From a virus: DNA of 44,736 nucleotides. Made by a program: the position numbers and the translations under genes. The DNA is taken from positions 1 to 44,736 of IMG/VR virus record IMGVR_UViG_3300037466_001855. The stretch is one strand, 5' to 3'. Below the pieces are notes generated by a model, which was not told where the DNA came from, searched no databases, and worked only from the letters and a program-made list of their open reading frames with translations. Shown in pieces: positions 526-44,736 of this stretch (positions are counted from its first letter, which is position 1; each line of letters opens with the position of its first letter).

Positions 526-537
526 TTTTCCGGTTTC
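526..537 (+). repeat. 12-bp exact direct repeat ttttccggtttc, copy 2
   Basis: Same 12-mer as 256-267. Confidence 0.8.
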
Positions 538-828: not shown

Positions 829-840
829 CTTCTGTCAAAA

Positions 841-2352: not shown

Positions 2353-2546
2353 AAAAATTCGTCTATTAATACCGTACGTTAACTTAACTTTTCCTTTTTG
2401 ATGCCCCCAGGTCGCCCATTGGTAAGGGGTAACGCACCGATGACGCGTAAACACAAGTAGGGCGGGGCTGCCGATTGGCGCAGCCGAAGAAGCACCCCTC
2501 CCACCAACTCCCGCTAAGCGCCGGGTAAAGCGTAAAGGAAAAAATC

Positions 2547-7327: not shown

Positions 7328-7341
7328 GGCTTTAGGAAAAA

Positions 7342-8571: not shown

Positions 8572-8582
8572 TGTATAAAAAG

Positions 8583-8617
8583 TTGACAATCGTACGTTAA
8601 TAGCGTACGCTAGTCAA
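8583..8617. promoter_or_regulatory. 35-bp near-palindrome TTGACAATCGTACGTTAATAGCGTACGCTAGTCAA (promoter/operator, readable on both strands)
   Basis: On the plus strand: TTGACA, 17 nt, TACGCT. On the minus strand: TTGACT, 17 nt, TACGAT. The core GTACGTTAATAGCGTAC (8592-8608) belongs to the GTAC-N9-GTAC family. Confidence 0.5.
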
Positions 8618-8649
8618 TAGATAAAGTTAGAGGTGTTACTGACCTTCGG

Positions 8650-9592: not shown

Positions 9593-9621
9593 GATCTCAA
9601 TCTAGATACAGGAGTATCGCA

Positions 9622-11120: not shown

Positions 11121-11130
11121 GGTTAATTAG

Positions 11131-13936: not shown

Positions 13937-13946
13937 GAGGTAATCA

Positions 13947-16351: not shown

Positions 16352-16403
16352 TTTAAGTCCTCCAAGAATATTATCGGCACATTGTTTAGAAAGTTGAGAT
16401 TCA

Positions 16404-17411: not shown

Positions 17412-18736
17412 TGCCATTTACTCCCGATAAACCATCAAGCGGATTTGTCCCGGATTCCCAGCCAAGTAGTGGCAATCCTATTAAAGACTACTACGCTCGT
17501 CATGAGAACGATAGCGTTGGTCAGAAGCTCATGGACATGGTGATCGCACCTAAGGATAACCCTATGACGGGTGATGACCTTGGGGCGGCCAATCTAGCGA
17601 TCCCTATGGAAGCTGCTCCAGCGGCATTACAAAAGCTCGCCGCTTATCTCGGTGGTTCTGGACTTGGAAACGCTGCTGCTAGAGTTGCTGCCAACACAGG
17701 AATAGGTGCCGCTCAGGGTGGCATGGCGGACGGTGCGGAGGGAGCAAAGAAAGGTGCTTTGATCGGTGGAGCTCTAAGCACTGCTGGCGAAGCTCTAGGC
17801 GGCCTTATGGGTCTTGCCAAGTGGGGTGGTCGTAATCTGTCGCGTATGACAGCTCCCCAAGCTGATGCCTATTTAGATGACCCTAGCGCGGTAGCTGAAA
17901 TGCGCAATGCGCTTGAAGATCCGTCTAAGATGCCAGCGCTCCAAGACCAGGCTGCGGACGCAATTAGAAATAGCCGTGCCGTATTAAAAGCACAAGGCCT
18001 TCAAAAAGCGTCACAGCTTCGGCAGGCCCTTGATGGTAAATATGTTCCTATTAACCCGCAGGAACTTTCAGGATTAAGTCCTGAAGCGGATAAAGAGTTA
18101 GCAGCTTTCTCGTATACCACGCCCGGAACTCCCGGTGAGGCGGTCATGGGTGATGATAACGTCATGACCCGAATTAACAGTACATCGCCTCAAACTTCAA
18201 TGAGTGACGCCGTATCAGTTCCTGCAAACGACGCTAATCAACTTAAGCGCTATCTCCAAGGCGCTGCTAAATACGTTCCGGGAAGCGTGACCGACCCGGT
18301 GCAAGCTGCTCGCGTTAAGGCCGCAGGACAGGCTGCTGCAAATCTCCGGGGCGGCATCGAAGGCGTGGCACCTGAAGCAGCAGATTTAAATAAACAGATG
18401 CAAGAGGGGATGCTTCTTCAAGAAGCACTCCGTAAGGGTGGTAAGAATTCACCGCTTGCTTTCATATCATCAGAATCCCCTGACCGTGTTGCAACTCTCG
18501 CTAGAGCTGAGAATGCTGGGGCAGGCGGACTTCTCGACTTCGGCAATAAGCTTGGTGCCGCTAAAACCATGGCTAGGCCTGATCAGGGTAGTGGTATCCC
18601 TACCTTCCTCAATAAGCTTGCCGGACGTACGATTATGCGGGGTGCGGATGCGGTTCAGAGCGCAGAAGACGCAAATCCTGCGGTAATTCAGTCCTTAATC
18701 GGAGGACTCTTTTCACCACCTGCTGAGAAGAAATGA
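17411..18736 (+). CDS. Gly/Ala-rich internal-virion-like protein
   Basis: 441 aa. TAATG coupling. GGxxG-rich segments are present. Confidence 0.55.
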   Translation: MPFTPDKPSSGFVPDSQPSSGNPIKDYYARHENDSVGQKLMDMVIAPKDNPMTGDDLGAANLAIPMEAAPAALQKLAAYLGGSGLGNAAARVAANTGIGAAQGGMADGAEGAKKGALIGGALSTAGEALGGLMGLAKWGGRNLSRMTAPQADAYLDDPSAVAEMRNALEDPSKMPALQDQAADAIRNSRAVLKAQGLQKASQLRQALDGKYVPINPQELSGLSPEADKELAAFSYTTPGTPGEAVMGDDNVMTRINSTSPQTSMSDAVSVPANDANQLKRYLQGAAKYVPGSVTDPVQAARVKAAGQAAANLRGGIEGVAPEAADLNKQMQEGMLLQEALRKGGKNSPLAFISSESPDRVATLARAENAGAGGLLDFGNKLGAAKTMARPDQGSGIPTFLNKLAGRTIMRGADAVQSAEDANPAVIQSLIGGLFSPPAEKK

Positions 18737-18742
18737 TGTAAT

Positions 18743-18979
18743 ATGAAAGATTGGGACTTGCTGGTAGAGGATGTAAAAGAAATCAAGGGGATGGTTAAGG
18801 AGACGAATCACGAGGTGAAAGAGCAAGCCATTACGCTCGCCAGGAACACCGAATCCTTAATCCACCATAGCGCTAGAACAAGCGCGAATGAGGAGCGGAT
18901 TAAGCAGGTGGAGCGTTACGTGATGGGTATTTTGATGGCCTTCCTTAGCGCCTGCCTCTACTACTTCCTAAGAAGATAG
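18743..18979 (+). CDS. Small tail-anchored membrane protein
   Basis: 78 aa. The N-terminal part is coiled-coil-like and the C-terminal TM segment is VMGILMAFLSACLYYFL. It is the last gene of the rightward operon, and its 3' end overlaps 18961-19284 on the other strand. Confidence 0.55.
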   Translation: MKDWDLLVEDVKEIKGMVKETNHEVKEQAITLARNTESLIHHSARTSANEERIKQVERYVMGILMAFLSACLYYFLRR

Positions 18980-19411: not shown

Positions 19412-20205
19412 GCACGCCTCTTAATCGAAAGCCTCTCGTCCTTTGAGAGCAAGTTTTCTCCCGACTTGCACCAAGAGCCGCAATCCGTACATTGAAACCG
19501 CTGTTGCTTTCCTGCCGCCGTATAATCGTATCCCCGTCGTTGTAGGTTCAATCCGCCACAGCTACGGCACCCCTCACCATCAAGCGTAATATTGACTGAC
19601 GTATCCCAGACGCGAAGCTTGTTATAAACAGCTTCAAGCGCAAGCACGTCTTGAATGTTGTATTTCTTCATTTCAGCCCAGGCAGCCTTATTTCCTGCAA
19701 GGCACTGACGCCAGAGTTCCATTCCGGGGAACTTGCTATGCTCAGACTTCTTCGTGACGCCTAATTTTTCAGTCAGATAGGCAAGGCCGTTTGACGTAAA
19801 GCCAAAGTTCTTCTTTGCGATCTGTTTGGTATCGATGTGTTTAGACGGAGAGGGGGGGTTCATCCCGTGGTAGATGAATCGTGCGTACACTTTCTTTTGA
19901 TCAAATGCCTTACCATTTTGAGTAATGACAATGTCAGCCTCATCGAGAAGGCTCCACAAGCGCTCCAAGAGCTTCTTATCATTTGTGATATCTTTTGCTT
20001 TACTCTGGTCGTGGTAGATAACACCCTTTTCACCCAGCCACTTTGCAGCGAAGGATAATAGGTGCCAATCCTTCTTGATCTGGTTAGGGGCCACATTTTG
20101 GTCGTAGATTCCCCACGTATACGTTTCAAGGGGACTCGTCTCAATGTCATAAATTAAAACCTTTGCTTTAGCCAAAACTGAACCCCTTTCGACGCAATTT
20201 CCCAA
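19408..20205 (-). CDS. DEDD-type 3'-5' exonuclease with C-terminal zinc ribbon
   Basis: LIYDIET is Exo I, QNGKAFD is Exo II and YNIQDVLAL is Exo III. The C-terminus has CRSCGG...CTDCGSWC. The track start is TTG 20205. An alternative TTG at 20175 has SD gaaagggg 7 nt upstream. Confidence 0.65.
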   Translation of the reverse strand: MGNCVERGSVLAKAKVLIYDIETSPLETYTWGIYDQNVAPNQIKKDWHLLSFAAKWLGEKGVIYHDQSKAKDITNDKKLLERLWSLLDEADIVITQNGKAFDQKKVYARFIYHGMNPPSPSKHIDTKQIAKKNFGFTSNGLAYLTEKLGVTKKSEHSKFPGMELWRQCLAGNKAAWAEMKKYNIQDVLALEAVYNKLRVWDTSVNITLDGEGCRSCGGLNLQRRGYDYTAAGKQQRFQCTDCGSWCKSGENLLSKDERLSIKRRA

Positions 20206-20590
20206 TTGCCTTCTTATACGCGTATGCCGCAGCGTCTACGCTTACCCACCCACATTTACGCACAATCTGTTTAAAATCGTTTTCTTCGTAAAACCTAAGA
20301 AGCATGAGCTCGATTTCGTGGTGATCTAAGCCGCACTCTTTAAGACGATTAATCCAGGCTTGCTTGGAAACTTCTTTTTTCTTCGTCCAAGCTTCAAGGC
20401 TCTGGCTGTATATTTCGATGACGTCGGTACTGTGGGCTTTGATGCTACTCTTAGAATTCTTCGGGAGCTTCGATTCCCAACAAGAACAATATGACCCATT
20501 GGCATTGATCAGGCTCCTATTACATTCTGGGCAGATGTCTGAGGACCTCTTCCCGTAGTTTTTCTTTTCCTTCGCCACAGTAAATCTCAT
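20168..20590 (-). CDS. Zn-ribbon plus sigma-70 region-4-like HTH protein (candidate transcription factor)
   Basis: Trimmed to the ATG at 20590, preceded by ggagaggg. The product is 140 aa with an N-terminal CPEC...CSC motif. The C-terminal HEIELMLLRFYEENDFKQIVRKCGWVSVDAAAYAYKKAIGKLRRKG follows the sigma region 4.2 pattern. Confidence 0.45.
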   Translation of the reverse strand: MRFTVAKEKKNYGKRSSDICPECNRSLINANGSYCSCWESKLPKNSKSSIKAHSTDVIEIYSQSLEAWTKKKEVSKQAWINRLKECGLDHHEIELMLLRFYEENDFKQIVRKCGWVSVDAAAYAYKKAIGKLRRKGFSFG

Positions 20591-21224
20591 TTGCATCCCT
20601 CTCCATGAGAACGATGGGAATGTGAGGGACTTTATTAAGTAGCAGACCTTTCGTATGGATAGCGGCCTCAGTTCCTGGGCCGTCACGATCCGTCTGTATT
20701 ATAACTGTACGGTAATAACGTACGAATGTCAATAGAGACTTACTGAACTTAGGGGTCTTGAAGTCAGACGCGGAGCCTGGGCTCATGACATCCCACTCTG
20801 GAAATGCCTCTGCCATGCTCAGTGAATTGGCCTCTCCTTCGACAAGTACCAACGTTCCGGACGTCCCTCGTCTGGCCCAGAAGACGGGCTTGGCGTGACC
20901 TGCAGGGCCACGGTACTTGTCCTTTGCGTCGGGGTTCCACACCCGGAGCTTATAGTAATCGCTATCAGGCCACACAAGATAATAGCCAAGATTGTCAAAT
21001 GGTAGATCGAATCCGCGTATCTTCTTTTTTGGCAGCGATCTAATGTACTCCATTTTCTCTTTAAGGTTCTCAACATAACGCTCCTTTGGCGCCATTTCCG
21101 CCACTTTCCCGCCAAGCTCGGAGAGCTCGATGCGTCCGCAACCGCCGTAGCAGTAAGCGTGCGTCTCGTAGACCACGAGACTTGGCGTAGACTCTTCGTG
21201 TTTAATGCAAAAGATTCGTTCCAT
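20520..21224 (-). CDS. DnaG-type DNA primase (CHC2 zinc finger plus TOPRIM)
   Basis: CIKHEESTPSLVVYETHAYCYGGCG is a CHC2-type zinc finger. LVEGEANSLS and IIQTDRDGPG are TOPRIM motifs (E and DxD). Confidence 0.75.
   Translation of the reverse strand: MERIFCIKHEESTPSLVVYETHAYCYGGCGRIELSELGGKVAEMAPKERYVENLKEKMEYIRSLPKKKIRGFDLPFDNLGYYLVWPDSDYYKLRVWNPDAKDKYRGPAGHAKPVFWARRGTSGTLVLVEGEANSLSMAEAFPEWDVMSPGSASDFKTPKFSKSLLTFVRYYRTVIIQTDRDGPGTEAAIHTKGLLLNKVPHIPIVLMERDANEIYCGEGKEKLREEVLRHLPRM
20701..20732 (-). promoter_or_regulatory. GTAC-N9-GTAC promoter/operator inside the primase gene
   Basis: The minus strand reads TTGACAttcGTACGTTATTACCGTACAGT. That is TTGACA, 17 nt, then TACAGT. It lies upstream of the sigma4-like gene. 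Confidence 0.5.
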
Positions 21225-25584: not shown

Positions 25585-26106
25585 TCAGAATCTCAGTTCT
25601 AATCCGACAACATCGCGTCCAATATTTGGCATCTCAAGACCTGCGGAACTTAGGTGGCGATACATAATGCCGATGTAGTATCCGCTACGGTCTTGAATCC
25701 CGATATGTAGGTCATCCATAAACTGGAGGGGGCCGCCCAACAGTACGTCTGGATTGGAAATTAAAGCAGGACCTGTGAAAAGACCGGCAACAAGGCTGCC
25801 GTTATTCACTTCAAATCCGATTTGGCCCGCAACTACGGCGCTACTCGATCTTCCTCGTCCCGAATTATCAAACCAGCCGCCGATTACTGCTCGATCTTTC
25901 AAGGGTCCGAATACGCCTTCCTGAATGCCCAGAGTGAGCATCTTCGTCTCAGATAGGCTTTTCTTTCCGCTGTTGAAGATGCCGACTCCACCGTCCAGGA
26001 CTAAATCGTCAGCGTAGCTGTCTTCCATCAGGAGAGACACCGTGCAGGCAACGATTAAGCCTCCTGCGATGATTGCGACTAATTTTTCAGGTAACGACAT
26101 GCTCAT
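25585..26106 (-). CDS. PagL-like outer-membrane lipid A 3-O-deacylase
   Basis: 173 aa with an N-terminal signal/TM and a C-terminal ...GLELRF (terminal Phe, as in OMP beta-barrels). RHLSSAGLEMPNIGRD lines up with my recollection of the PagL active-site block HYSNAGLKQPNDGIE (His, Ser and an acidic residue). Confidence 0.6.
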   Translation of the reverse strand: MSMSLPEKLVAIIAGGLIVACTVSLLMEDSYADDLVLDGGVGIFNSGKKSLSETKMLTLGIQEGVFGPLKDRAVIGGWFDNSGRGRSSSAVVAGQIGFEVNNGSLVAGLFTGPALISNPDVLLGGPLQFMDDLHIGIQDRSGYYIGIMYRHLSSAGLEMPNIGRDVVGLELRF

Positions 26107-26111: not shown

Positions 26112-26141
26112 AAGCATGTACGATAATAACGTACGCGTCAA
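26112..26141 (-). promoter_or_regulatory. GTAC-N9-GTAC promoter/operator upstream of the PagL-like gene
   Basis: The minus strand reads TTGACGcGTACGTTATTATCGTACATG. The ATG at 26106 lies 8 nt after the TACATG element with no SD, so a leaderless mRNA is predicted. The spacer is 15 nt here. Confidence 0.45.
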
Positions 26142-30550: not shown

Positions 30551-30583
30551 TTGACGCTATCGTACAAAGCGTACGGTAGTCAA
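30551..30583. promoter_or_regulatory. Face-to-face TTGAC...GTCAA element with GTAC-N7-GTAC core in the divergent control region
   Basis: The sequence is TTGACGctatcGTACaaagcGTACggtaGTCAA. On the minus strand: TTGACT, 18 nt, TAGCGT, 6 nt, GTG 30547. Confidence 0.4.
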
Positions 30584-30847
30584 CATTAAAAAATACGATA
30601 ATAATGTACAAGCGGTATTTACGAACGGTTAAAAATATGCTAGTAGTTAAACGTGGTAACGTTGGGACTGGCAAGACATCAGCGTTATCATGGCGTGAAA
30701 TTTCCCTTAATTTAACGGTATAAGCGCTGTAAACGTTTATGCCGTTTACTTTATCTAAAGATAGGCAAGACATCTTCTTTCGGCGTGAACATCCCTTGAG
30801 ATGTTTCCTTATAGAATACATTTATATCATATAAGCATACACTAAGG

Positions 30848-30876
30848 TTGACTAGTGTACGTCATTAGTGTACATT
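30848..30876 (+). promoter_or_regulatory. GTAC-N9-GTAC promoter of the rightward accessory operon
   Basis: The sequence is TTGACTagtGTACGTCATTAGTGTACATT (TTGACT, 17 nt, TACATT). SD ggag and the ATG at 30895 follow. Confidence 0.55.
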
Positions 30877-30894
30877 AAGGGTAGGAGTATTCAT

Positions 30895-31122
30895 ATGAAG
30901 TACCTATCTGTCCTAGCCTTATTGGCCCTCTCAGCCTGCGACTCAGCGCCAAAGACATTTCTCTGCATGTCGGCACTCACGCCACTCGGCGGTATTCAAA
31001 TCGACACCTCGAATCCTGCTGTCAAAGAACATAGGGACAGCCTTGAGTTTACGACCCCTCAAGGAAACGTCCTTGTCGTTCCAAAGTCTCTTTGTGTCGA
31101 AGTTAGAGAGTCGGTGCAATGA
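30895..31122 (+). CDS. Small lipoprotein
   Basis: An internal ATG follows SD taggagt. MKYLSVLALLALSAC carries the lipobox LSAC. The product is 75 aa. Confidence 0.7.
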   Translation: MKYLSVLALLALSACDSAPKTFLCMSALTPLGGIQIDTSNPAVKEHRDSLEFTTPQGNVLVVPKSLCVEVRESVQ

Positions 31123-31844
31123 TGGTGAGATTCATTGATTTCCTTTTTGCCGTAGCAATCACGCTATTGTTTGCCTTGATCCTTGTAACCGCAAAAGCGG
31201 CACATGCTGACACCAAGTCTGCTATGGATCAGCTCAGAAAGACCGCCGTACGTATTGAAGGCGCAGGCTGTAGCGGGAGTGGCTCCGTTGTCCAAGGACG
31301 TTCAGGGCATCACTATCTGATTACGAATGCCCATGTCTGCCTTTGCGCAGGTTACCGTAAACATCTCTATGCCACTTACGAAGGTGGCGCGATGGTTCGC
31401 GGTGACGTCTCTAAAATTGACTGGAACGCCGATCTTTGCGCCGCAAGGGTTGATAATTCTTACCCAGCACTAAAGCTTGGCCCAATGCCCGTGCCTTACC
31501 AAGAGGTCAACACTCGGGGCTATCCAAGCGGACGGCTTGCCGAGAGTCACGGAATGCTTAAGGGCTCGGTGTCCTGGGAATATGAAATGGAGATCGGGAT
31601 TATCGGGGAGTGTCCGGCAGGAACTCAGGTGATGCGAGACATTAATGGTCGTGTCAGTGGGTGTGAACTCCATCATTTCTCGGTGCTTTCAAACCTCTAC
31701 GCACGTCCCGGATCTAGTGGAAGTCCTGTCGTTAACGATGACGGCGGATTGGTGGGTGTTATCTCGTCTTGGCATCCTGGCGATGACTACGACGCAGGTA
31801 GCGTCCCTTACGGACAAGTGCGGAGTTTCTTGGAGGGTTTATGA
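31119..31844 (+). CDS. Secreted trypsin-like (S1/Trypsin_2-type) serine protease
   Basis: There is an N-terminal TM/signal. ITNAHV supplies His, DLCAARV supplies Asp and GSSGSPV supplies Ser. Confidence 0.75.
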   Translation: MMVRFIDFLFAVAITLLFALILVTAKAAHADTKSAMDQLRKTAVRIEGAGCSGSGSVVQGRSGHHYLITNAHVCLCAGYRKHLYATYEGGAMVRGDVSKIDWNADLCAARVDNSYPALKLGPMPVPYQEVNTRGYPSGRLAESHGMLKGSVSWEYEMEIGIIGECPAGTQVMRDINGRVSGCELHHFSVLSNLYARPGSSGSPVVNDDGGLVGVISSWHPGDDYDAGSVPYGQVRSFLEGL

Positions 31845-32746
31845 ACACGAGTTGGCATTCGTATCCTAAAGTTTGGGCAATTGGACACGCAGCAGTTGCA
31901 GAGTTGTTCTATGACGATGTGATTGTGCAAGAGAAGGTGGATGGCTCGCAATTCTCTTTTGGCGTATTTGACGGCGTACTCAAGATGCGCTCTAAGGGCC
32001 AGGAGCTTAATATTGATGCTCCTGAGAAGATGTTCGAGAACGCTGCAAAAACCGTCTTCCGTCTGAAAGACAAGCTTGTTCATGGGTATACGTATCGCGC
32101 TGAATACCTTCAGAAACCCAAGCATAACGTACTCGCATATGACCGCACACCTGAATCGCATATCATGATTTTTGATATTAATTCGGGTCAAGAATCTTAC
32201 CTTTCCTACGAAGAGGTTGAGGCCGAAGCAAAGCGCCTGGGGCTCGAAGTGGTCCCTCTTTTATACTCTGGCAAAGTATCTTCGGCTGTTGACCTTGAGA
32301 AGCTTCTAGAAAGAACCTCGGTCTTAGGAGGTCAGAAAATCGAAGGCTTCGTTGCCAAGAACTATGCGCGTTTCGGCAAAGACAAAAAAGCTCTCATGGG
32401 TAAGTTCGTATCCGAAGCGTTCAAGGAAAAGCATAAGAAGACCTGGAAAGAAGAGAACCCAGGACAAAATGACATCGTACAACTTCTGATCGGTCAGTAC
32501 CGAACCCCGGCGCGTTGGGATAAGGCCATCATTCATCTCCGTGAGGCAGGGGCTCTTGAAGGTAGTCCTAAAGATATTGGAAAGATCATTAAGGAAGTTC
32601 CTAAGGATCTGTTGTCTGAGTGTGAGCAAGAGATCAAGGACCAACTATTTCAATGGGCGTTCCCCGACCTGATTCGCGGCGTGAATAGAGGTCTTGCTGA
32701 GTACTATAAAGAGCGATTGTTTAAGTCGCAATTTGAGGGGCGATAA
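31841..32746 (+). CDS. ATP-dependent RNA-ligase-like nucleotidyltransferase
   Basis: QEKVDGSQ is motif I (KxDG). EGFVAKN is motif IV. GKFVSEAFKEKHKK is motif V-like. The product is 301 aa. Confidence 0.55.
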   Translation: MNTSWHSYPKVWAIGHAAVAELFYDDVIVQEKVDGSQFSFGVFDGVLKMRSKGQELNIDAPEKMFENAAKTVFRLKDKLVHGYTYRAEYLQKPKHNVLAYDRTPESHIMIFDINSGQESYLSYEEVEAEAKRLGLEVVPLLYSGKVSSAVDLEKLLERTSVLGGQKIEGFVAKNYARFGKDKKALMGKFVSEAFKEKHKKTWKEENPGQNDIVQLLIGQYRTPARWDKAIIHLREAGALEGSPKDIGKIIKEVPKDLLSECEQEIKDQLFQWAFPDLIRGVNRGLAEYYKERLFKSQFEGR

Positions 32747-33270
32747 TGCACGACCAGCAACGTGAAGCCGGTAAAAAGCGGGGTGGTATCCGTCCTCCGA
32801 CAAACGACGCTCTCCACATCACGCAAATCGCAGGACTCTTAGCGATTGGTAAGTCCGCTACTGAGATCGCACGGCAGCTCAATCTCGGCTACCACACGGT
32901 TAAGCGCATCTCGAACAAGGATGAATGTAAAAGCGTTGTTGCGGAGATTACGTCAAGCTACAAGGAAACTGCGAAAGCAGTCGCCGCAAAGGCCGTAGCC
33001 GACATGACTGATCTTGCTGTTGAGGGGCTTAAGAAGGCTCTTAAAGAGGGCAATATCCAAGCCGTTCGAACGCACTTCCAGGTGCTTGGACTGATTGGTC
33101 AGGAAGAGTCCCAAACTAAGCAGCAGGGGACTGGAACGATCCAAGTGATTTTGCCAGGTGCTCATGCTGAGAAGCCTGCAATCGACGTGGATACGAGCAA
33201 CATTACTTTAGAAATGCCAGAGGTTTTAAATGGAGAACAAGAAGTGGACCTGGGACCCGGAGAAGCGTGA
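32746..33270 (+). CDS. HTH DNA-binding protein (regulator, or possibly TerS-like)
   Basis: IGKSATEIARQLNLGYHTVKRISNK is a helix-turn-helix. A coiled-coil-like segment follows. Confidence 0.5.
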   Translation: MHDQQREAGKKRGGIRPPTNDALHITQIAGLLAIGKSATEIARQLNLGYHTVKRISNKDECKSVVAEITSSYKETAKAVAAKAVADMTDLAVEGLKKALKEGNIQAVRTHFQVLGLIGQEESQTKQQGTGTIQVILPGAHAEKPAIDVDTSNITLEMPEVLNGEQEVDLGPGEA

Positions 33271-33397
33271 AGTCGTCATCCATGAGAACGGCGACTACAT
33301 GCTTGGAATTTCAGAGACTCAGTACGTGACGGTGAGGGTGGAGGTGGGGAATGGCAGTAAAGACGTATCCGAAAAAAGCGGGGGTGAAGCTCAGTGA
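33230..33397 (+). CDS. Possible 55-aa ORF bridging the HTH and peptidase genes
   Basis: Hand translation begins MENKKWTWDPEKREVVIHENGDYMLGISETQYVTVRVEVGNG. SD agagg is upstream. It overlaps both neighbours out of frame and is below the track size cutoff. Confidence 0.3.
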   Translation: MENKKWTWDPEKREVVIHENGDYMLGISETQYVTVRVEVGNGSKDVSEKSGGEAQ

Positions 33398-33773
33398 TCA
33401 TTTTACTAGCTCTGAATTCGATTGCCCTTGTGATTCTTGCACTGAAACTCTTATCGATGAGCGACTCATCGAACTGCTTGAGCCGACACGTCGAGCACTT
33501 GGAGCGCCTCTTAGAATTAATTCTGGCTACCGATGCTCACAATACCAAGAAGCTCTTAGACTCAGAGGCTATGAAACCGCCTGTGGAATATCTCAACACG
33601 AGCTCGGAAGGGCAGTGGACATCATGCTATCGGGCGACGGAGAAGCTACGGGCGCAGAGATCGAGCGAGCGGCTAGAGCGGCAGGATTTAAAGCAGTAGG
33701 AGTAGGGCACAACTGGTGCCATGTGGATTTACGCGACGATAAAGAACGGCGCTGGGAGTATAAATCAAGATGA
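33351..33773 (+). CDS. Peptidase M15 (D-Ala-D-Ala carboxypeptidase/endolysin-type) cell-wall hydrolase
   Basis: Motifs are LSDHFTSSEFDC, INSGYRC, SQHELGRAVD and WCHVDL. A strong SD ggaggtgggg is present. Confidence 0.8.
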   Translation: MAVKTYPKKAGVKLSDHFTSSEFDCPCDSCTETLIDERLIELLEPTRRALGAPLRINSGYRCSQYQEALRLRGYETACGISQHELGRAVDIMLSGDGEATGAEIERAARAAGFKAVGVGHNWCHVDLRDDKERRWEYKSR

Positions 33774-33967
33774 CACAACCTCGTCGCCAAGTAACTGTAC
33801 ATGTCGAGCTTCCCCAAGATGGTTCCATGAAAGCTATGCGGATTTATATCAAGAGTGATGACGGGAAAGATCTAACTTTTCAGGCCGTTCTTGATGCCGT
33901 TTCTGATGTTCTGATCGATGAGGTGGTTTTAGACTACGGCGAGGATGACCCCGTTTATGACGCCTAA
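33770..33967 (+). CDS. Small acidic hypothetical protein
   Basis: 65 aa. ATGA coupling. Confidence 0.5.
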   Translation: MTQPRRQVTVHVELPQDGSMKAMRIYIKSDDGKDLTFQAVLDAVSDVLIDEVVLDYGEDDPVYDA

Positions 33968-34310
33968 GTTTAAATTTCAGATTATGGGCAAGAACTGGAC
34001 TCTGCGTCTGATGAAGCGAAAGCGCTACATGAAGACGAATGGCGCCGATAGTGTGGCGATCACCGAGTGCTATAAGCGCCAGATCGATCTAAGTCCTTAT
34101 GGCCGTGATCTTGAGACGATCATTCATGAGCTCGTTCATGCGTATCTCTGGGAGATGGGGGTAGGTACGGCGACTCTCGATGCTGACGCTATCGAAGAGG
34201 TAATGTGTGAACTTATGGCTAAGCGTGGTCGTGAGCTCTTGGATATGGCAGATTCCCTTTATTCACGAATTCAAACGCTTTTTCCTGATTCCGAAACTGC
34301 GGGGTCGTAG
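33945..34310 (+). CDS. SprT/ImmA-like HExxH zinc metallopeptidase
   Basis: The motif is IIHELVHAYLWE, preceded by the ...ITECYKRQIDL... context typical of SprT-like domains. Roughly 110-121 aa. Confidence 0.45.
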   Translation: MTPFMTPKFKFQIMGKNWTLRLMKRKRYMKTNGADSVAITECYKRQIDLSPYGRDLETIIHELVHAYLWEMGVGTATLDADAIEEVMCELMAKRGRELLDMADSLYSRIQTLFPDSETAGS

Positions 34311-34963: not shown

Positions 34964-35163
34964 AGATCCTTCGGAGGCTGGGTGTTAATGAGAAAAATCA
35001 TTGCGCGTTTTGCTCTAATGAGCTGAGTGTGGATAAGCTCTAGCGCCTTTAACTTCTGCTCAAGTGTTGCCTTCTGATCCTGCTGAATTCCTGCAACGGT
35101 TTGAGAAACAGCGAATAGCCAATTATTGAACTCTCGCTTGTACTGGTCCCTGATATTAGACAT
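34960..35163 (-). CDS. Small coiled-coil hypothetical protein
   Basis: 67 aa. ATGA-type overlaps on both sides. Confidence 0.5.
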   Translation of the reverse strand: MSNIRDQYKREFNNWLFAVSQTVAGIQQDQKATLEQKLKALELIHTQLIRAKRAMIFLINTQPPKDL

Positions 35164-36148
35164 TAAGCAGCCTCCTCCATGAAGCGATCACACTAGACAG
35201 TCGGAACTTTGGATTAGCTTTTACCTTAGGGCGATTACCGCTGTGCCACGCCATGACTCTGTCAATGACGGAGCGTACGTTACGGCAGTCCAATGTTTCA
35301 GACGGATGAAAGAGGACTTCGCGAGCGGCCCCGATAGGGTGAGTTAGGACTGGTGTGCCTACTGCGTTGGGCTCTGAAAAGCACAGGCCGAATGTCTCGG
35401 GAAAAACTATGTTAGGATAAAATAAACAAAGGCTGTTTCTAAGGTGATGTATGACATCAGCGTGAGGTAAGGCACCCAGCGTGGTAACTCCTTGCTGAAC
35501 TCCTTCATAGTTCGGAAGGTAGCCGGGATTCGCGATATACAATCGAAAGTCAGGATTGAAGCTAAGAAGATTTTTAAAAACAGCAAGAGCATAGTCGATC
35601 CCTTTATGCGGCGAACTAATCCACAAGAGTTTGTTAGGGTCTACCGGTGTACTGTCCGGCGCCAAGTCGTCTGAAATCGGATTGTAAATTACTTTGACCG
35701 GAAACTGGCCGGAGTAGCCTTGCGGGTAGAGAGTGTCTTGAATTTGGGTCTTGTGGAAGTTCGACACGGCAATAGTCGTGAAATCGCTTTGTTTGACCAT
35801 GTCCCGCGCTGTCTCAGCAGAGCAAAGGTCATGATTCCAGAGGTAGTGTCGAGCTCTGGGGAAGCGCTCCTTAGCTTTACGTAGCGTTTCGGGAGAGCGT
35901 AGGGAGATGACGTAATCCGGAGGAGACATGGTGTCCCCAATCGGCCTGTAGACTACATCGCCTTCATCAAAATAAAGAACCCTACAGTGCTGTTGTACAG
36001 CTACAGAAAACAGTCCTGTTGCAGCAAGTCCCTCGGCAACTCGTACAACGGTCGCTTCTGTGCCGCCTAGCGCTTGTGTAGCTAGAACGTGAGGATCATA
36101 AGGCTTATTACATACTTCATCGATAAACAGGACAACAGGTAATGCCAT
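35156..36148 (-). CDS. GT-B fold (GT4-like) glycosyltransferase
   Basis: The N-terminal LGGTEATVVRVAEGLAATG and the C-terminal PETFGLCFSEPNAVGTPVL (E-x7-E motif) fit the family. The product is 330 aa. Confidence 0.6.
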   Translation of the reverse strand: MALPVVLFIDEVCNKPYDPHVLATQALGGTEATVVRVAEGLAATGLFSVAVQQHCRVLYFDEGDVVYRPIGDTMSPPDYVISLRSPETLRKAKERFPRARHYLWNHDLCSAETARDMVKQSDFTTIAVSNFHKTQIQDTLYPQGYSGQFPVKVIYNPISDDLAPDSTPVDPNKLLWISSPHKGIDYALAVFKNLLSFNPDFRLYIANPGYLPNYEGVQQGVTTLGALPHADVIHHLRNSLCLFYPNIVFPETFGLCFSEPNAVGTPVLTHPIGAAREVLFHPSETLDCRNVRSVIDRVMAWHSGNRPKVKANPKFRLSSVIASWRRLLNV

Positions 36149-36151: not shown

Positions 36152-36184
36152 GTACAGTGTACGTTATTAACGTACAAGCGTCAA
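36152..36184 (-). promoter_or_regulatory. Promoter with perfect 17-bp palindrome GTACGTTATTAACGTAC (36159-36175)
   Basis: The minus strand reads TTGACGcttGTACGTTAATAACGTACACT (TTGACG, 17 nt, TACACT). The ATG at 36148 is 7 nt after the -10 with no SD. Confidence 0.6.
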
Positions 36185-36186: not shown

Positions 36187-36666
36187 TTAACGTGCTCGGC
36201 GCATGATCATCTTACAAAGTGCTTGTGCGTCTTCTTGAGATAGATCATTAGGTAGTGATAGGGGAACTTCGCGTCCTGAAGGCAACACTGCTACAACACC
36301 AGCATGATGGTTAGTAGAAGGCTGCTTCGAAGATTCAGCGTGGGTTACTGTACCGCCAGTGACAAGAGCCATTGCAGCTACGTCTTTCATGCTGGTGTGC
36401 CACTTAAAGGTCATCGGTTTACCTTTTTCAGTGATCAGCTTACCAACGCCTGCTTTTTCGAGATTCTTAAATACCTCGACGAACTCCTGTGGCACAACTT
36501 TCACGCCCTCTTGTTCGAGTTCGTAGCGTACGCGACGTGTGTCCATCATACCCTCACGTGGGTTACGATCACGTTCTTTAAAGACCTTGAATACGGCCTT
36601 AGCAGTAGCGTTTAAGTTTGCGATCTGGGAAAGCTTCTTCTCGTCCATATGTAATTCACCTTTCAT
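36187..36666 (-). CDS. Hypothetical protein, possible winged-helix regulator
   Basis: 159 aa from the ATG at 36666, which lies 6 nt after a TATAAG -10. An alternative ATG at 36648 has SD aaggtga. It is a stand-alone unit between two promoters, next to int. Confidence 0.55.
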   Translation of the reverse strand: MKGELHMDEKKLSQIANLNATAKAVFKVFKERDRNPREGMMDTRRVRYELEQEGVKVVPQEFVEVFKNLEKAGVGKLITEKGKPMTFKWHTSMKDVAAMALVTGGTVTHAESSKQPSTNHHAGVVAVLPSGREVPLSLPNDLSQEDAQALCKMIMRRAR

Positions 36667-36672: not shown

Positions 36673-36701
36673 CTTATAGTGCAGCTAACGTACCACGTCA
36701 A
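36673..36701 (-). promoter_or_regulatory. Sigma70-like promoter TTGACG-17-TATAAG with a GTACGTTA half-site
   Basis: The minus strand reads TTGACGtgGTACGTTAgctgcacTATAAGcagcgcATG. Confidence 0.55.
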
Positions 36702-36851
36702 GTATTAACGTATGAGAGATGGCACAGGTTTTCTGTATATAGATTATACGACTGACAAGATGGGTGAGAAGTGAAAAGCATGACCCAGTCAATATTCTCT
36801 ATGTAATTTATTTAGTTAAATTATACACTTATGCGATTTAGACTGAACCCG

Positions 36852-37988
36852 CTAGGCAGCTTTTTTGCGACGCTTAGCGACGGGCTTCGTGAAATGTACC
36901 TTATCGCGACGCTTATAGTCTGCCCACGTACGATCAAGCGTTGTGTGACCCATCCACTGCGATATGTCTTCAAGCCTCTGCCCAAGTCCTAGCATTAAGT
37001 CAGTGAAGCTCTTACGACCGGAATAAGTATCGACATGCGGTTTATTAAAATACTTCTGAAGCGTCTTAGGTAGAGGACGGTCAAACTTGCCGCTACGAAT
37101 TATTTTTAACGCGTCTCCTTGCTCGGGGTAGAGAATTGGAATGAGCTTCCAGCGATCCTCTTCATCGACAGACTCTTGAAGTTTAGTCTGATAGACGTGA
37201 AGGATTTGTACACCGTCCTGAGTCTCCACTCGGTAGGGGTACTCTGCGTTAGGATCTTTTAATGCGTCTACTTCCTCGGGACGAAGGCCAAACCATAGGG
37301 AGATAAAGACCCAGTTGTATTGCTCTATTTTAAGATTACTCTTAACGACTTCGAGCTCAGCAGGTGAGATAGGATCACTCTTATGTCTACGGTCAGGTTT
37401 TGAACGATAAGCGTTAACCTGCTTAATCCTAAGCTTCCCTTTAAGAGGCGGTAGTGGAAAGAAGGCCTTCTTATACTTTCGGCAATAGAAGTAACCGTAC
37501 AGGTTCATTAACGCGATAATGCGTTCGGTGTATCCTGGGCTAAATTTTTGCTGGATGAAGTAGTTGTAGAACATGAATGGCTTCTCAGCCCATTCAGATG
37601 GGTCCAGTTTTACTGCTCCCATTGTAATGATCGCAGCTCTCCATTTCACGGCAAGCTTATGCTTATGGTCCCAGACCATCGTACCTAAGAACTTTGGCGC
37701 CAAGACTCCATTCTCGAACTCTTCAATGTCGAGCTTAGGTAGGAAGGCTAGGGCCTCAAGCCTTTCAGTCTCCATGCGCTCGGCAATTTTTAAGCGCTCT
37801 TTGGATCTGAGCTCTAACTTATTCTGTGCGTTGAGTTGCGCTGCTCTCGCTTTGGCCTGCTCAAACGTGAGGTCAGGTGAAAAGCCTGCTGCAACAAGGC
37901 CGGACTTCTTGACGTTCTTTCCATCTATATAGATGTACCAGGACGTGGTACCGTCTTTCTTCTTATAGGGTCTTACTTCAATTGCCAT
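36852..37988 (-). CDS. int: Tyrosine integrase with arm-type N-terminal DNA-binding domain
   Basis: The ATG at 37988 follows SD aaggaga. The N-terminus is VRPYKKKDGTTSWYIYIDG. Catalytic signatures are LRPEEV (Arg), YSGRKSF and MGHTTLDRTWADY (His...Tyr). Confidence 0.8.
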   Translation of the reverse strand: MAIEVRPYKKKDGTTSWYIYIDGKNVKKSGLVAAGFSPDLTFEQAKARAAQLNAQNKLELRSKERLKIAERMETERLEALAFLPKLDIEEFENGVLAPKFLGTMVWDHKHKLAVKWRAAIITMGAVKLDPSEWAEKPFMFYNYFIQQKFSPGYTERIIALMNLYGYFYCRKYKKAFFPLPPLKGKLRIKQVNAYRSKPDRRHKSDPISPAELEVVKSNLKIEQYNWVFISLWFGLRPEEVDALKDPNAEYPYRVETQDGVQILHVYQTKLQESVDEEDRWKLIPILYPEQGDALKIIRSGKFDRPLPKTLQKYFNKPHVDTYSGRKSFTDLMLGLGQRLEDISQWMGHTTLDRTWADYKRRDKVHFTKPVAKRRKKAA

Positions 37989-38031
37989 CGATTCTCCTTT
38001 CGGAGTCATCGGCCAGCACCTTAAGTAAAAA

Positions 38032-38387: not shown

Positions 38388-38795
38388 TTATTCTTTTGCG
38401 GCGCTCTGTAGGGCTTGCTTGGCGATGTTACAATATTGCCATTGGTACTTATCCCGAAGCTGGTCCCAGCTACCGGCATCGTAGGCTATTTGTTTCAGCG
38501 CCTCAACTAGCCGCGCATTCCGTTCGCGCTCTTGCTTGAGTTCCAGCCTGAACTCGTCACGTTCTTTAGAGCAAACGTTAGCAGTGTCTAAATAACCCTT
38601 AATCTCAGCTTGATAAGCCATCACGTCTTTGCGCCAGTCGTCTCTCATGCGCTTGACCTGTTCCAATTCGACCTTGAGCGCGTCAGCGTCGGCCATCCAA
38701 GACATTGCGGCTTTCTTCCACATACGCTCACGCCATTTCGAGGCAGCGAGTTCTACGCGCAACCGTTCCACTTCTTTTTGCAGGTCGGTGCTCAT
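38388..38795 (-). CDS. Coiled-coil hypothetical protein
   Basis: 135 aa, rich in heptad-like E/K/R/L repeats. Confidence 0.55.
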   Translation of the reverse strand: MSTDLQKEVERLRVELAASKWRERMWKKAAMSWMADADALKVELEQVKRMRDDWRKDVMAYQAEIKGYLDTANVCSKERDEFRLELKQERERNARLVEALKQIAYDAGSWDQLRDKYQWQYCNIAKQALQSAAKE

Positions 38796-39094
38796 GTGCC
38801 ACCCTCACTTCCATCGGTGCCATCGTGTCCGTCATGCCCATCTTGTTCACCGTGGTTACCGTTGCCGTCGGTGAAGCTGACCTCTTCAGACATCAGGCTA
38901 ATCACATAGTGCTCGGTAGCGCGTAGAGCGGCTCGCATCTCGTCGAGTTTACGTGTTTTAATAGCGTACGGTATCGTATCGTCCGCCCAGACCTCAAGGA
39001 TCTTAGCCTTCATATCCTCAATAGCCTGTAGTAATACTTTAATCTGGCTCATTGTAGGTGACATAGGTACTCCAATTTCTAATGCATAGGCCAT
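38792..39094 (-). CDS. Hypothetical protein with Gly/Asp/His-rich tail
   Basis: Strong SD aaggaggg lies 7 nt upstream of the ATG at 39094. The C-terminus reads DGNGNHGEQDGHDGHDGTDGSEGG. Confidence 0.6.
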   Translation of the reverse strand: MAYALEIGVPMSPTMSQIKVLLQAIEDMKAKILEVWADDTIPYAIKTRKLDEMRAALRATEHYVISLMSEEVSFTDGNGNHGEQDGHDGHDGTDGSEGGT

Positions 39095-39285
39095 ATAATG
39101 ACCCTCCTTGGGGTTACGTATTGCGCATCCTGCGCCATCACCAGAACCACTTTAAACGCCTAACGGACGTAAAAAGTCATAACGGACACCAGTAAGTTAA
39201 GACATACCTAACTTACTAGCGACACACTTACGATAATAGAGTACGCGTACGCTAATGTACAGAAAACAATTGTTAACGTACTAGC

Positions 39286-39813
39286 CTATGCTAAGATTGC
39301 GGCGTCAACTTCGTCCTGTCCGATAGAGAGATAATGCGTAGTTGAGGCTAAAGATGCATGACCTAGCGCTTTTTGTGCAGCTACAACGTTCTTTTCGGTC
39401 CTGAGGTAGACGTTCATGCCAAAGGTCTTACGCATGGAATGGGTCGATACAGTACCGGACAGACGGGCCTTACGGGATGCCTCTTTAATGACACGCCAAG
39501 CGTGCTGCCTGGTCATGGGGAATAGTTTACCCACAACGCCTGTTTTGAGGTAACTTTGTAACGCCTGCTTAGCGAGAGGGTGTAGGGGAATGGTGCGACT
39601 CTGGCGCTTACCCTTCATGTTTCGGCGGTGTACGGTAAGCGTGTCCCGAATGCTACCGTCCTCTTGTGACACATCCTCGATACGCAAAGAGAGGAGCTCT
39701 GAAATACGAAAGCCGGTTTTAATGCCAACAATGAACAAGGCACGATCTCGTAAAGAGGTCATTTGATCTAGGATTAAGGTCAACTCCGAGTCTTTAAGAT
39801 CTCTCGATTTCAT
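39286..39813 (-). CDS. Compact (175-aa) tyrosine recombinase, catalytic domain only
   Basis: RDRALFIVGIKTGFRISELLSL supplies Arg, HSMRKTF supplies HxxR and LGHASLASTTHYL supplies His...Tyr. There is no N-terminal core-binding or arm domain. Confidence 0.7.
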   Translation of the reverse strand: MKSRDLKDSELTLILDQMTSLRDRALFIVGIKTGFRISELLSLRIEDVSQEDGSIRDTLTVHRRNMKGKRQSRTIPLHPLAKQALQSYLKTGVVGKLFPMTRQHAWRVIKEASRKARLSGTVSTHSMRKTFGMNVYLRTEKNVVAAQKALGHASLASTTHYLSIGQDEVDAAILA

Positions 39814-39843
39814 ACACACCTCTAGTTACAAATCTTTGAATTG

Positions 39844-41188: not shown

Positions 41189-41587
41189 CTAATTAGTAAT
41201 CTGACAGTTAACGCTCACGTTGAAATCACAACGCGAGTTAATACCATTACTGGTATACGCGCCGGGCGGTAGCAGCGCCGTGAATCCTCCATTTGCAGAA
41301 TAAGTTGCATATAGTTTGTTATTCACGCAAAACGCATATTCAATAAACGTCGTAGGATAAACGGGACTGCCGGGGCAGAGCTTAACCATTGTGACAGGCG
41401 TTGCATCCACACCTGCTGGACCTCTATCACCAGTCGGGCCAGTTGATCCTGTTGCACCTGTAGGGCCTTGAATGCCTGGAGCTCCGTTCAAGCCATCAAC
41501 GCCAGGATCGCCCTTTTCGCCTCTCATCTGTCCACAATTTGATACTGCAAAGAGAGTCAGCACTAATAATGAGATTGGGTACTTCAT
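41189..41587 (-). CDS. Secreted collagen-triple-helix-repeat protein
   Basis: The signal is MKYPISLLVLTLFAVSNC. It is followed by 12 uninterrupted G-X-Y triplets (GEKGDPGVDGLNGAPGIQGPTGATGSTGPTGDRGPAG). Confidence 0.75.
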   Translation of the reverse strand: MKYPISLLVLTLFAVSNCGQMRGEKGDPGVDGLNGAPGIQGPTGATGSTGPTGDRGPAGVDATPVTMVKLCPGSPVYPTTFIEYAFCVNNKLYATYSANGGFTALLPPGAYTSNGINSRCDFNVSVNCQITN

Positions 41588-42922: not shown

Positions 42923-43372
42923 TTAAGCAACCTCCTTCGCCTTACGGCGATAATAGGTCTTTCGGTTACTCTCTCGGTTGCACACCTTACACTGTCTGCC
43001 TCCGCCACGATCCTTACGAACGTAAGTATTCTCTTCGTTGTATTCGTGGCCCTTTGAACAATGTGTCTTGACTTGGTTAGCGTGACGGCCTTTAGCAACC
43101 ATATCGCTAACATTGTCTTGCTGTGTCCCGATGAACAGGTGCGAAGGGTTTACACAGAGCTTGTTGTCGCAAGTGTGGCAAACAGTCCAACCATCTGATA
43201 GCATGCCTACGAAGAACACGACGGCCAATCTATGCGCTAGCTTGTATTCACCGTTAACCCACAACACTCCGTAACCCGAACCGCTAACTGTGCCAGTCCA
43301 TTGCCAACATCCGTTAGCTAACTTGTTAATCCGACTGTCGAAGCGTTCGCGTGCTGGAATTGACTTAGGCAT
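42923..43372 (-). CDS. HNH homing-type endonuclease
   Basis: The core is WTVCHTCDNKLCVNPSHLFIGTQQDNVSDM. C-terminal HCSKGH...CKVC zinc knuckles follow. Confidence 0.85.
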   Translation of the reverse strand: MPKSIPARERFDSRINKLANGCWQWTGTVSGSGYGVLWVNGEYKLAHRLAVVFFVGMLSDGWTVCHTCDNKLCVNPSHLFIGTQQDNVSDMVAKGRHANQVKTHCSKGHEYNEENTYVRKDRGGGRQCKVCNRESNRKTYYRRKAKEVA

Positions 43373-44043: not shown

Positions 44044-44179
44044 AAGAACTCCTATTACCGAATCACGACTGTGTAACCGAGAGCTATGAGCTTGTTTAGG
44101 GCTTTCAGGCTAATCTTGGTTACTATTACCGTTCGCTGCATACGGTAATACATAGTAGCATACGTTATGCCAACAAATA

Positions 44180-44196
44180 GTACAATAATATCGTAC
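44180..44196. promoter_or_regulatory. GTAC-N9-GTAC element GTACAATAATATCGTAC upstream of the 44043 operon
   Basis: It has the same spacing and AT-rich centre as the other family members. No clear TTGAC is correctly placed on the minus strand. Confidence 0.35.
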
Positions 44197-44599
44197 GTGG
44201 TGCAGATTGACTCATGTAGAACTTATAGGCAGTTTTGAAATAAGAGCAGTTTAAAATGGCGGATTGGGCCGTGGGAACGTGGGGATATGTGCAGTGTAAA
44301 ACTTATAGTGACACACTGAGGCTGGTATCGCTGCCTGGACGTAATAACGAGAGCTCCGCCGTTAGCCCTATTCCAATAGCGTACGAGAGCTCGTAAAGCC
44401 TGCTAAACGCGGCTAATGGGCAGGCTAGGTTATAACGTATTAGAGACGATAGAGAGCACGTTACAATTCCTACAAATGTAACATCGCTATGTAATCATTA
44501 AACAATCACTAGCTAATACTGTGGTCTAGGCATGCTATGAGCTACGTTATAGCTAGGGCTTAGACCACGCCCTGCCTTGCCCTTGCTATGCCCCTAGAC

Positions 44600-44625
44600 G
44601 GGGCGGTGAGGGGGTGGGGTGGGGG
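44600..44625 (+). other. Canonical G-quadruplex motif GGGGcggtgaGGGGGtGGGGtGGGGG
   Basis: Four G-runs of 4 or more with loops of 6, 1 and 1 nt. It straddles the start of the terminal repeat, and three of the runs recur at 1-16. Confidence 0.6.
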
Positions 44626-44736
44626 ACGAATTTGATTTAAAATATATCCATATACACATCCGCACATAATTTTTTGCTATTTTTTACGGCCTAATTCCAG
44701 ACATTTAGGGCTAGTGGCTATCTCAAATATATGCGT
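44610..44736. repeat. Terminal direct repeat copy 2, identical to 1-127
   Basis: See copy 1. Confidence 0.95.

Follow-up and report, generated by a model that had tools for sequence, protein, structure and literature searches.

Operators that overlap promoters include the OR and OL sites of phage lambda (17 bp), LexA boxes, and the 7-1-7 boxes of the Fur family. In the Streptomyces phage phiC31, conserved 17-bp inverted repeats are reportedly bound by the repressor, at conserved early promoters and at many intergenic sites, according to Ingham, Wilson, and Smith in 1994-95. Cluster A mycobacteriophages, such as L5 and Bxb1, carry dozens of short operator or stoperator copies throughout the genome, oriented with transcription (PMC6550527, PMC9283540). 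Relatives within this cluster possess distinct consensus sequences that track their repressors, and stoperators are asymmetric, lie mostly outside promoters, and block elongation (PMC6550527). The window analyzed here, comprising all 44,736 nucleotides of the IMG/VR virus record IMGVR_UViG_3300037466_001855, contains a recurrent 17-bp dyad with a GTAC-N9-GTAC core, situated largely within promoters. Judged from the sequence, the leading explanation, to which slightly better than even chances are given, is that the dyad represents the operator set of one regulator, built into host-type sigma-70-like promoters. What is new is an operator-type dyad in a phage clade that has not been studied, its likely regulator being a member of an unannotated protein family; the kind of control is familiar.

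The recurrence of the dyad, reported in a preliminary description of this DNA, is real. GTAC-N9-GTAC was matched seven times against 0.29 expected, and none of 100 shuffled sequences reached seven, while the fuller pattern TTGAC-N2-4-GTAC-N9-GTAC, for which the same control had been proposed, gave six matches at five sites and none in 100 shuffles. The 17-mer GTACGTTAWTAACGTAC with up to three mismatches was found seven times (0.06 expected), and k=9 was the sole peak among GTAC-Nk-GTAC pairs. Half-sites are enriched as well, GTACGYTA occurring 19 times against 1.7 expected and the heptamer TACGTTA 18 times against 3.5, with 14 occurrences of each located in intergenic DNA. A weight-matrix scan set apart seven strong sites, at 8592, 20707, 26118, 30593, 30857, 36159, and 44180, and returned degenerate sites at 39228 and 2361. 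Six of the seven strong sites are intergenic, though intergenic DNA makes up only about 12.5% of the genome, which answers the concern that the motif might be as frequent in coding sequence. The positions first reported for the dyads and half-sites (36159, 26118, 20707, 8592, 30857, 44180, 30593, 39228, 36686, 2374, and 39272) were correct, as was the description of 36159 as a perfect 17-bp palindrome, the sole perfect one among the sites; the element at 30562, originally taken for an N7 version, is GTAC-N5-GTAC. One of the seven GTAC-N9-GTAC matches, at 37935-37951 (GTACCAGGACGTGGTAC), with a similar sequence in the corresponding gene of the relative L015, was rejected as a member of the motif owing to its GC-rich center and its location within the coding sequence of a 385-aa product. 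As a restriction-type word, GTAC shows no avoidance (162 observed, 175 expected). A generic sigma-70 consensus scan was not enriched (22 matches against 18.2 expected) and is therefore uninformative by itself.

Read in the direction of transcription, the sites follow TTGAC(A/G/T), 1-3 nt, GTACGTTAWTAnYGTAC(A/G)nT, and the last three bases of the dyad open the -10 hexamer, which is TACGCT, TACAGT, TACATT, or TACACT. The TTGAC element, initially assigned to most sites at a distance of 1-3 nt, is present at 8592, 20707, 26118, 30857, and 36159, and is missing at 44180 and 30593. The proposed frame, in which the dyad occupies the spacer and its end forms the first three bases of the -10, was recovered at four to five sites: the distance from -35 to -10 is 17 nt at 8592, 20707, 30857, and 36159, whereas 26118 departs from it with 15 nt to TACATG. 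Spacers range from 15 to 18 nt across the sites and are mostly 17 nt, and five of the seven strong sites stand in a -35/-10 frame. The 17-bp dyad covers approximately -26 to -10, overlapping core promoter elements and holding TAC in common with the -10.

Conservation was counted over 18 sites from four phages, namely the window and three related phages. For the successive bases of the left half, G T A C G T T A, the counts are 16, 18, 18, 18, 17, 14, 17, and 18 of these sites; next come W and then T and A, each in 18/18; position 12 is fully degenerate (5/4/4/5), position 13 is C or T, and the right end reads G, T, and A, each in all 18, with a final C in 15. Besides the -35 and -10, 11 positions are invariant and three more are nearly so (16-17/18). 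To our knowledge, spacer conservation of this kind is absent from ordinary sigma-70 promoters. The outer GTAC and the central TAWTA are symmetric, and GT at positions 5-6 has no mirror image at positions 12-13 (N, C or T), so that an almost invariant left half, GTACGTTA, faces a relaxed right half, TA-N-Y-GTAC. The operator-like character claimed at the outset is supported by the overlap with the promoter and by the replacement of the dyad in relatives, but the conservation is not that of a symmetric palindrome.

Three other classes of element were ruled out. The RNA hairpins of the dyads are weak (0 to -8.2 kcal/mol) and, except at 30593, are not followed by a T run, which excludes intrinsic terminators. 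Spacers of 15-18 nt exclude a MerR-type activator site, which requires over-long spacers of 19-20 nt, and the genome holds no open reading frame (ORF) fitting a phage-encoded RNA polymerase of the T7 or N4 type, whose promoters these might otherwise have been.

Ten further loci of relatives were obtained via the DNA polymerase or the terminase, in addition to L010, which is the window phage again, recovered from a different sample; the relatives were compared over approximately half of each genome, the early regions being covered in a minority of them. The search of related phages suggested by the preliminary description located the dyad at equivalent promoters in three of them (L011, L015, and L020), the equivalent places being the divergent control region, the interior of the primase gene, the stretch that follows the polymerase gene, and those that precede the glycosyltransferase gene and the early operon. 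Elsewhere in the clade the spacers differ. L012, L016, and L061 contain direct repeats of TTAYTGTA in the layout TTGAC-TTATTGTA...CTTAYTGTA, L013 contains GCGTACAYAACAWCTGTACGCT, which is non-palindromic inside, L018 contains a different dyad, TAGCGTAWTAnCG, and L014 has plain promoters without a common spacer sequence. Since the relatives with other spacers (DNA polymerase 55-80% identical) keep TTGACN-17 nt-TAnnnT promoters at the same places, the existence of these promoters is independent of the dyad. Most spacer types have (T/C)GTA(C) right at the -10, so the right-hand GTAC of the window is partly a clade-wide promoter feature. At the level of sequence, the comparison says that the promoters are ancestral and host-type, and that each phage lineage has overlaid them with a spacer sequence of its own. 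Replacement of the spacer over kept promoters is the expected look of a regulator site laid over ordinary promoters. In IMG/VR, the exact 17-mer gave nine single-copy matches, about the number expected by chance, and no locus had a second copy; scanning IMG/VR for the capsid or for the winged-helix alignment produced no match, nor did two metagenome scans.

In the proposed mechanism, a regulator bound at approximately -26 to -10 would block RNA polymerase from the promoter; with the dyad centered near -18 of a 17-nt spacer, a repressor fits better than an activator. One regulator, whether as a dimer or by way of the strong left half-site, would shut or throttle most transcription units together, namely the early leftward, replication, lysis/accessory, and glycosyltransferase operons, as well as the internal promoters after the capsid and DNA polymerase genes. 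As the same site heads most transcription units, the whole genome could be silenced or timed through a single protein. The marked units had first been regarded as accessory and regulatory rather than core, which is only partly the case, given that 8592 precedes the genes after the capsid and that 30593 and 30562 head the replication operon. The candidate regulator is a 159-aa protein with a predicted winged-helix domain. Its promoter is the only one that bears half-sites alone, and its gene lies beside a recombinase-like gene, a layout expected of a lysogeny or immunity module. Active promoters, protein binding, repression through binding, and the identity of the binder are all suggested here by sequence patterns.

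The exchange of spacers could also reflect a phage-specific promoter class, in which a conserved spacer is read by a phage-modified RNA polymerase and serves as an element turning promoters on. The modifying factor could be, for example, the clade-wide product of 20168-20686 (minus strand), whose gene overlaps the 3' end of the primase gene and which combines a zinc ribbon with a C-terminal helix-turn-helix weakly resembling region 4 of SigX, an extracytoplasmic function (ECF) sigma factor (E = 0.028). A homologue was found in 8/8 relatives examined, always just downstream of the primase-internal promoter, and the protein may be a clade-wide transcription factor. Such a class would account for the possession by each phage of its own spacer sequence at equivalent promoters, as with promoters of phage-specific polymerases or sigma factors, and for conservation oriented with transcription. 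It is nonetheless considered rather unlikely. The window has the dyad and L012 direct repeats, but their sigma4-like helix-turn-helices are almost alike; L012 and L016 belong to one spacer type, and there this domain is different. Furthermore, no phage RNA polymerase gene is present (the largest non-structural product is a 594-aa DNA polymerase), the promoters already have a good -35 and -10 at 17 nt, and L014 makes do with plain promoters at the same places.

About equally unlikely is an explanation without any binder, in which one promoter cassette was spread or homogenized within each genome by duplication or gene conversion and the near-palindrome is a founder accident. At the equivalent of 8592, L020 and L019 lack approximately 40 nt containing the -35 and the dyad, which indicates that copies are gained or lost as promoter-plus-dyad units, as such spreading would have it; the possession of a separate version by each phage and the non-palindromic nature of some versions, such as that of L013, are also in keeping with it. 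Against it, similarity ends at the promoter edges, with unrelated flanks on either side, and variation is concentrated at two positions, with 11 invariant and three nearly invariant ones in four phages whose proteins differ by 15-50%. One copy is moreover maintained within the primase coding sequence, and isolated half-sites too are enriched in intergenic DNA.

With respect to the binder under the operator reading, a comparison of 20 kb around the polymerase revealed that the genes for the 159-aa protein and the 385-aa product are the only ones kept in every dyad-bearing phage yet diverged or absent in L012. In this comparison the 159-aa protein is 81-84% identical in the dyad-bearing phages and 34% identical in L012; a second comparison gave 83-93% for phages with the dyad and 24-30% for the homologues in phages lacking it. 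The 385-aa gene is absent from L012, which has a Pfam-recognized integrase at that place. Between L015 and the window, identity amounts to 68% for the polymerase, 48% for the PagL-like protein, and 57% for the glycosyltransferase, compared with 84% for the 159-aa protein and 93% for the 385-aa product. By these sequence comparisons, the dyad travels with a two-gene cassette made up of the 159-aa and 385-aa genes. The family of the 159-aa protein comprises 419 clusters at 50% identity, and its AlphaFold model displays the order helix-strand-helix-helix-strand-strand, that of a winged helix. Foldseek listed mostly winged-helix regulators and domains (Fur, MarR, PadR, and ORC), at E >0.1. Provided that the dyads form an operator set, the 159-aa protein is given a chance somewhat short of even of being the predicted binder.

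Several observations weigh against this account. Neither alone nor as an 80-member alignment did the 159-aa protein match anything in Pfam, PHROGs, NCBIfam, or the PDB sequences; its model is of low confidence (predicted local distance difference test, pLDDT, of 60), and every Foldseek hit lies above E = 0.1. Although the direct-repeat spacers of L012 and L061 are alike, identity between their winged-helix homologues is only 22%. Within 10 kb of the polymerase no L012 protein is closer to L016/L061 than to the dyad-bearing phages, and none in the covered region follows the direct-repeat type; the binder may lie outside the approximately half of each relative's genome that was compared. Support for a symmetric dimer is reduced by the lopsided conservation and by the right GTAC, which belongs to a -10 feature found across the clade. 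As for lysogeny, no resemblance of the 385-aa protein to integrases emerged from BLASTP, profile comparison, or a search of the PDB.

Three binders had been proposed at first, and only the 159-aa protein tracks the motif, imperfectly. The product of 32746-33270 was rejected as the specificity determinant, its helix-turn-helix varying hardly at all from dyad-bearing phages to those with direct repeats, and that of 20168-20686 (first listed as 20168-20590) was rejected on the distribution of its helix-turn-helix given above. The 385-aa gene is possibly a divergent tyrosine integrase, as judged by eye from the motifs GLRPEE, GRKSF, and GH...DY; its model has a strand-strand-helix N-terminus, and the single-sequence AlphaFold prediction is unusable beyond residue 80. 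Pfam-recognized integrases occur in the relatives L012 and, faintly, L017.

Outside phages, the exact 17-mer occurred 40 times in species-representative bacterial genomes, about the number expected by chance. Gut Clostridia (Christensenellales-like) account for 20 of these 40 loci (L022, L024, L026, L028, L032, L034-L037, L041, L042, L047, L049, L051, L052, L054-L056, L059, and L060), the other matches being scattered at chance level. Nearly all of the 20 have one stereotyped layout, GTACGYTnnnAC-TTGACAA-GTACGTTAWTAACGTAC-TATAAT, and a few instead have a second dyad just downstream of the -10. The dyad adjoins a divergent 70-aa XRE-family gene, 70-84% conserved, and is often found upstream of a membrane-protein gene whose product resembles, by eye, the DUF975 family. 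One genome, HAN095, contains five exact copies of the 17-mer, most of them in other contexts. We know of no description of Clostridia XRE-gene divergent promoters with this 17-mer, and from its sequence the locus looks like an undescribed conserved cellular regulatory unit. It resembles the window in that the identical 17-mer lies between TTGACA and the -10 and a second partial site abuts the -35; indeed, the phage winged-helix promoter and L060 have in common TACGTTAATACTTGAC, 1-3 nt, and GTACGTTA. Unlike in the window, it belongs to cellular genomes, nearly all of which have a single such locus, and across its 18-nt spacer the -10 comes after the dyad, without overlap. The neighbor, too, is a 70-aa XRE-family protein, for which the window encodes no homologue by tblastn and phmmer over all reading frames (E >1).

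The occurrence of the same 17-mer in a Clostridia promoter spacer supports the idea of a protein-binding operator and also leaves open a host-factor model. In the latter, the phage sites would be bound by a host transcription factor, for instance a small XRE-type repressor, tying phage promoters to the state of the host. The shared 17-mer, promoter position, and extra half-site abutting the -35, found beside the XRE gene in half of the bacterial matches, would be explained in this way, as would the lack of an XRE-family homologue in the window. This model is deemed improbable, since the matching genomes are gut Clostridia, whereas a PagL-like barrel and a 140-aa endolysin point to a Gram-negative host, since the matches beyond Clostridia are scattered, and since the motif type changes among close phages along with the phage cassette. 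The two occurrences are read as independent use of the same DNA site by phage and Clostridia.

The sites and the two cassette genes are collected in Table 1.

Table 1. Dyad-bearing promoters, degenerate sites, and cassette genes of the window (positions in the window).
Feature	Position	Strand	Details
Degenerate dyad after terminase gene	2361..2381	+	GTCTATTAATACCGTAC, overlapping GTACGTTA half-site
Dyad promoter after capsid gene	8583..8617	+	TTGACA-atc-GTACGTTAATAGCGTAC-GCT
Dyad promoter inside primase ORF, upstream of zinc-ribbon/sigma4-like ORF	20704..20732	-	TTGACA-ttc-GTACGTTATTACCGTAC-AGT
Dyad promoter in gap between DNA polymerase gene and PagL-like gene	26113..26141	-	TTGACG, c, GTACGTTATTATCGTAC
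Leftward control region of replication operon	30554..30609	-	Degenerate full dyad 30593-30609 upstream of -35 TTGACT 30583-30578
Short dyad	30574-30562	-	GTACGCTTTGTAC in 18-nt spacer, then -10 TAGCGT 30559-30554
Dyad promoter of lipoprotein/protease/RNA ligase/endolysin operon	30848..30876	+	TTGACT-agt-GTACGTCATTAGTGTAC-ATT
Perfect-dyad promoter	36156..36184	-	-35 TTGACG 36184-36179, dyad GTACGTTAATAACGTAC 36175-36159, -10 TACACT 36161-36156
Gene for 159-aa protein	36187..36666	-	Predicted winged-helix N-terminal domain, undescribed family; best candidate dyad binder
Winged-helix gene promoter	36673..36713	-	TACGTTAATAC-TTGACG-tg-GTACGTTA-gctgcac-TATAAG
385-aa gene	36852..38009	-	In cassette with winged-helix gene; 93-94% identical in L011, L015
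Degenerate dyad and half-sites, gap between short recombinase gene and 38792-39094	39228..39281	.	Degenerate dyad 39228-39244; half-sites GTACGCTA (39247), TAACGTAC (39274)
Dyad upstream of 44043 operon	44177..44196	-	GTACGATATTATTGTAC then TACTAT; no recognizable -35

The perfect-dyad promoter lies upstream of the glycosyltransferase gene (35156-36148) and has counterparts at the same place in L011 (1964) and L015 (1904). The 26118 site, for which CATGCT at 17 nt offers an alternative -10, is identical in L011 and similar in L015, and the other relatives have a promoter there with a different spacer. Equivalents of 20707 in L011, L012, L013, L014, L016, and L061 keep the -35 and -10 with a different spacer. 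The 30857 promoter corresponds to L011 6526 and L015 6607, the two-site layout of the leftward control region is repeated at L015 6871-6925, and the 44180 dyad is invariant in L020 together with its flanks. The promoter of the winged-helix gene, similar to one in L012 and with a good -10 (TATAAG), lacks a full dyad; it bears two half-sites in direct orientation, of which the first abuts the -35 and the second lies in the spacer. At 8592, TTGAC stands on both flanks, the mirror TTGACT on the minus strand giving TTGACT-17 nt-TACGAT, so this promoter could be bidirectional, with leftward firing antisense to the capsid gene. Just 3' of the capsid gene, at approximately 8626-8680, a GGTGGG...CCCACC hairpin is kept in L020 and L019 irrespective of the dyad promoter; it may be an RNA structure or a weak terminator.

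The early region contains a 177-aa protein (39286-39819, minus strand) that consists of a tyrosine-recombinase catalytic domain alone (Pfam E = 9e-21, XerD/XerA-like) and falls below normal integrase size; proteins of similar size with the same Pfam domain occupy the matching place in L019 (181 aa) and L020 (170 aa). Also encoded there, both on the minus strand, are a collagen-like repeat protein (41189-41587, Pfam E = 6e-7) and an HNH endonuclease (42923-43372, E = 9e-10). Between the early operon and the terminase gene extends a non-coding region of approximately 1.4 kb (window 44044-44736 plus 1-840), 71% identical to L020 over 1,300 nt, in which the ORF at 252-755 (minus strand) looks spurious. 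It holds several isolated TACGTTA half-sites, only two of them conserved in position, and a G-rich tract, GGGGCGGTGAGGGGGTGGGGTGGGGG, that spans the assembly junction. The region may function in packaging, as an origin, or in control.

A role of the dyads outside transcription, as sites where a nuclease, a site-specific recombinase, or a replication protein acts, is regarded as highly improbable. The recombinase domain is encoded with degenerate sites adjoining it, and half-sites cluster in the conserved non-coding region. The dyad, however, is built 8-1-8 without the 6-8-bp crossover spacer, and at least nine copies stand at fixed positions relative to the -35/-10 and at operon heads.

The last approximately 127 bases of the window duplicate bases 8-127, and the window is therefore a circular assembly, representing a complete phage genome of about 44.6 kb. 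Rightward genes from about 840 to 18,979 encode the terminase, a 749-aa product taken to be the portal, the capsid, and further, mostly putative virion proteins. Leftward genes from 30,462 to about 19,000 encode DNA polymerase A, a DnaB-like helicase, a primase, and a nuclease, and rightward genes from 30,868 to 34,310 encode a lipoprotein, a trypsin-like protease, an RNA ligase, and an M15 endolysin. From 44,043 leftward to 34,380 come small early-type genes, the short tyrosine recombinase, the 385-aa and 159-aa genes, and the glycosyltransferase. Neither tRNA genes nor Rfam families were detected in the window. The PagL-like protein (25585-26106, minus strand) has an N-terminal hydrophobic segment and a C-terminal GLELRF typical of outer-membrane barrels, a sign that the outer membrane of a Gram-negative host is probably used or altered by the phage; the LELRF end of this barrel, together with the single-domain form of the 140-aa endolysin, makes such a host likely.

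Megablast with 10 kb of the window matched no GenBank phage, and matches of the capsid, DNA polymerase, and terminase proteins to cultured phages were all below 30% identity. With no close cultured relative by DNA or protein, the clade has no literature of its own. In metagenomes, thousands of DNA polymerase homologues were found at E <= 1e-20; the best 120 listed are 49-100% identical, and many of their contigs are about 44 kb long. The clade is large and known only from metagenomes.

For this metagenome-only clade, the analysis provides a regulatory map that shows the promoters, the probable operators within them, and a few candidate regulators. Binding of the dyad by the winged-helix protein, if it occurs, would give an unannotated protein family a function, and spacer differences would then sort the relatives into immunity groups. 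The promoter-operator units, at approximately 32 bp, are compact and might serve as repressible parts once the binder is known. A more ambitious proposal, put forward tentatively and held to be unlikely overall, is that the 159-aa protein is the founder of an undescribed family of winged-helix phage repressors, carried with the recombinase-like gene as an exchangeable immunity cassette, each cassette imposing its own spacer sequence on about ten otherwise ordinary promoters. Were this true, a widespread uncultured clade would be divided into immunity types readable from promoter spacers, and the Clostridia XRE operator would mean that two unrelated folds had converged on one DNA site.

Compared with described systems, the window sites resemble the operators of lambda, LexA, and Fur in being odd-length dyads with an AT-rich center that overlap the -10 or the spacer, where a bound dimer would exclude RNA polymerase. 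As in lambda operators, consensus and non-consensus half-sites are combined, and the layout TACGTTA-W-TAACGTA matches the 7-1-7 arrangement of Fur-family boxes. Unlike in lambda, the putative operators are many, dispersed, and single, without a tripartite switch. Homologues of CI, Cro, LexA, and Fur were not found by sequence, and Fur-like fold matches were non-significant. In common with Cluster A stoperators, the conservation of the motif is oriented and its type changes among relatives, whereas the window sites are dyad-like and lie nearly all within promoter cores; the stoperator class was ruled out on the dyad-like form of the full sites and their frequency in the -35/-10 frame. The 159-aa candidate displayed no similarity to described families, including repressors, in the Pfam, PHROG, NCBIfam, and PDB searches, which did not include a direct comparison with the Cluster A repressors. 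Like phiC31, the window phage has a 17-bp inverted repeat in many near-identical intergenic copies, tied to a family of near-identical phage promoters, and one phage-encoded regulator is proposed to act over many transcription units. Unlike in phiC31, the repeat is of unrelated sequence and fills the spacer and part of the -10 of sigma-70-type promoters, and the candidate binder is a predicted one from an undescribed family.

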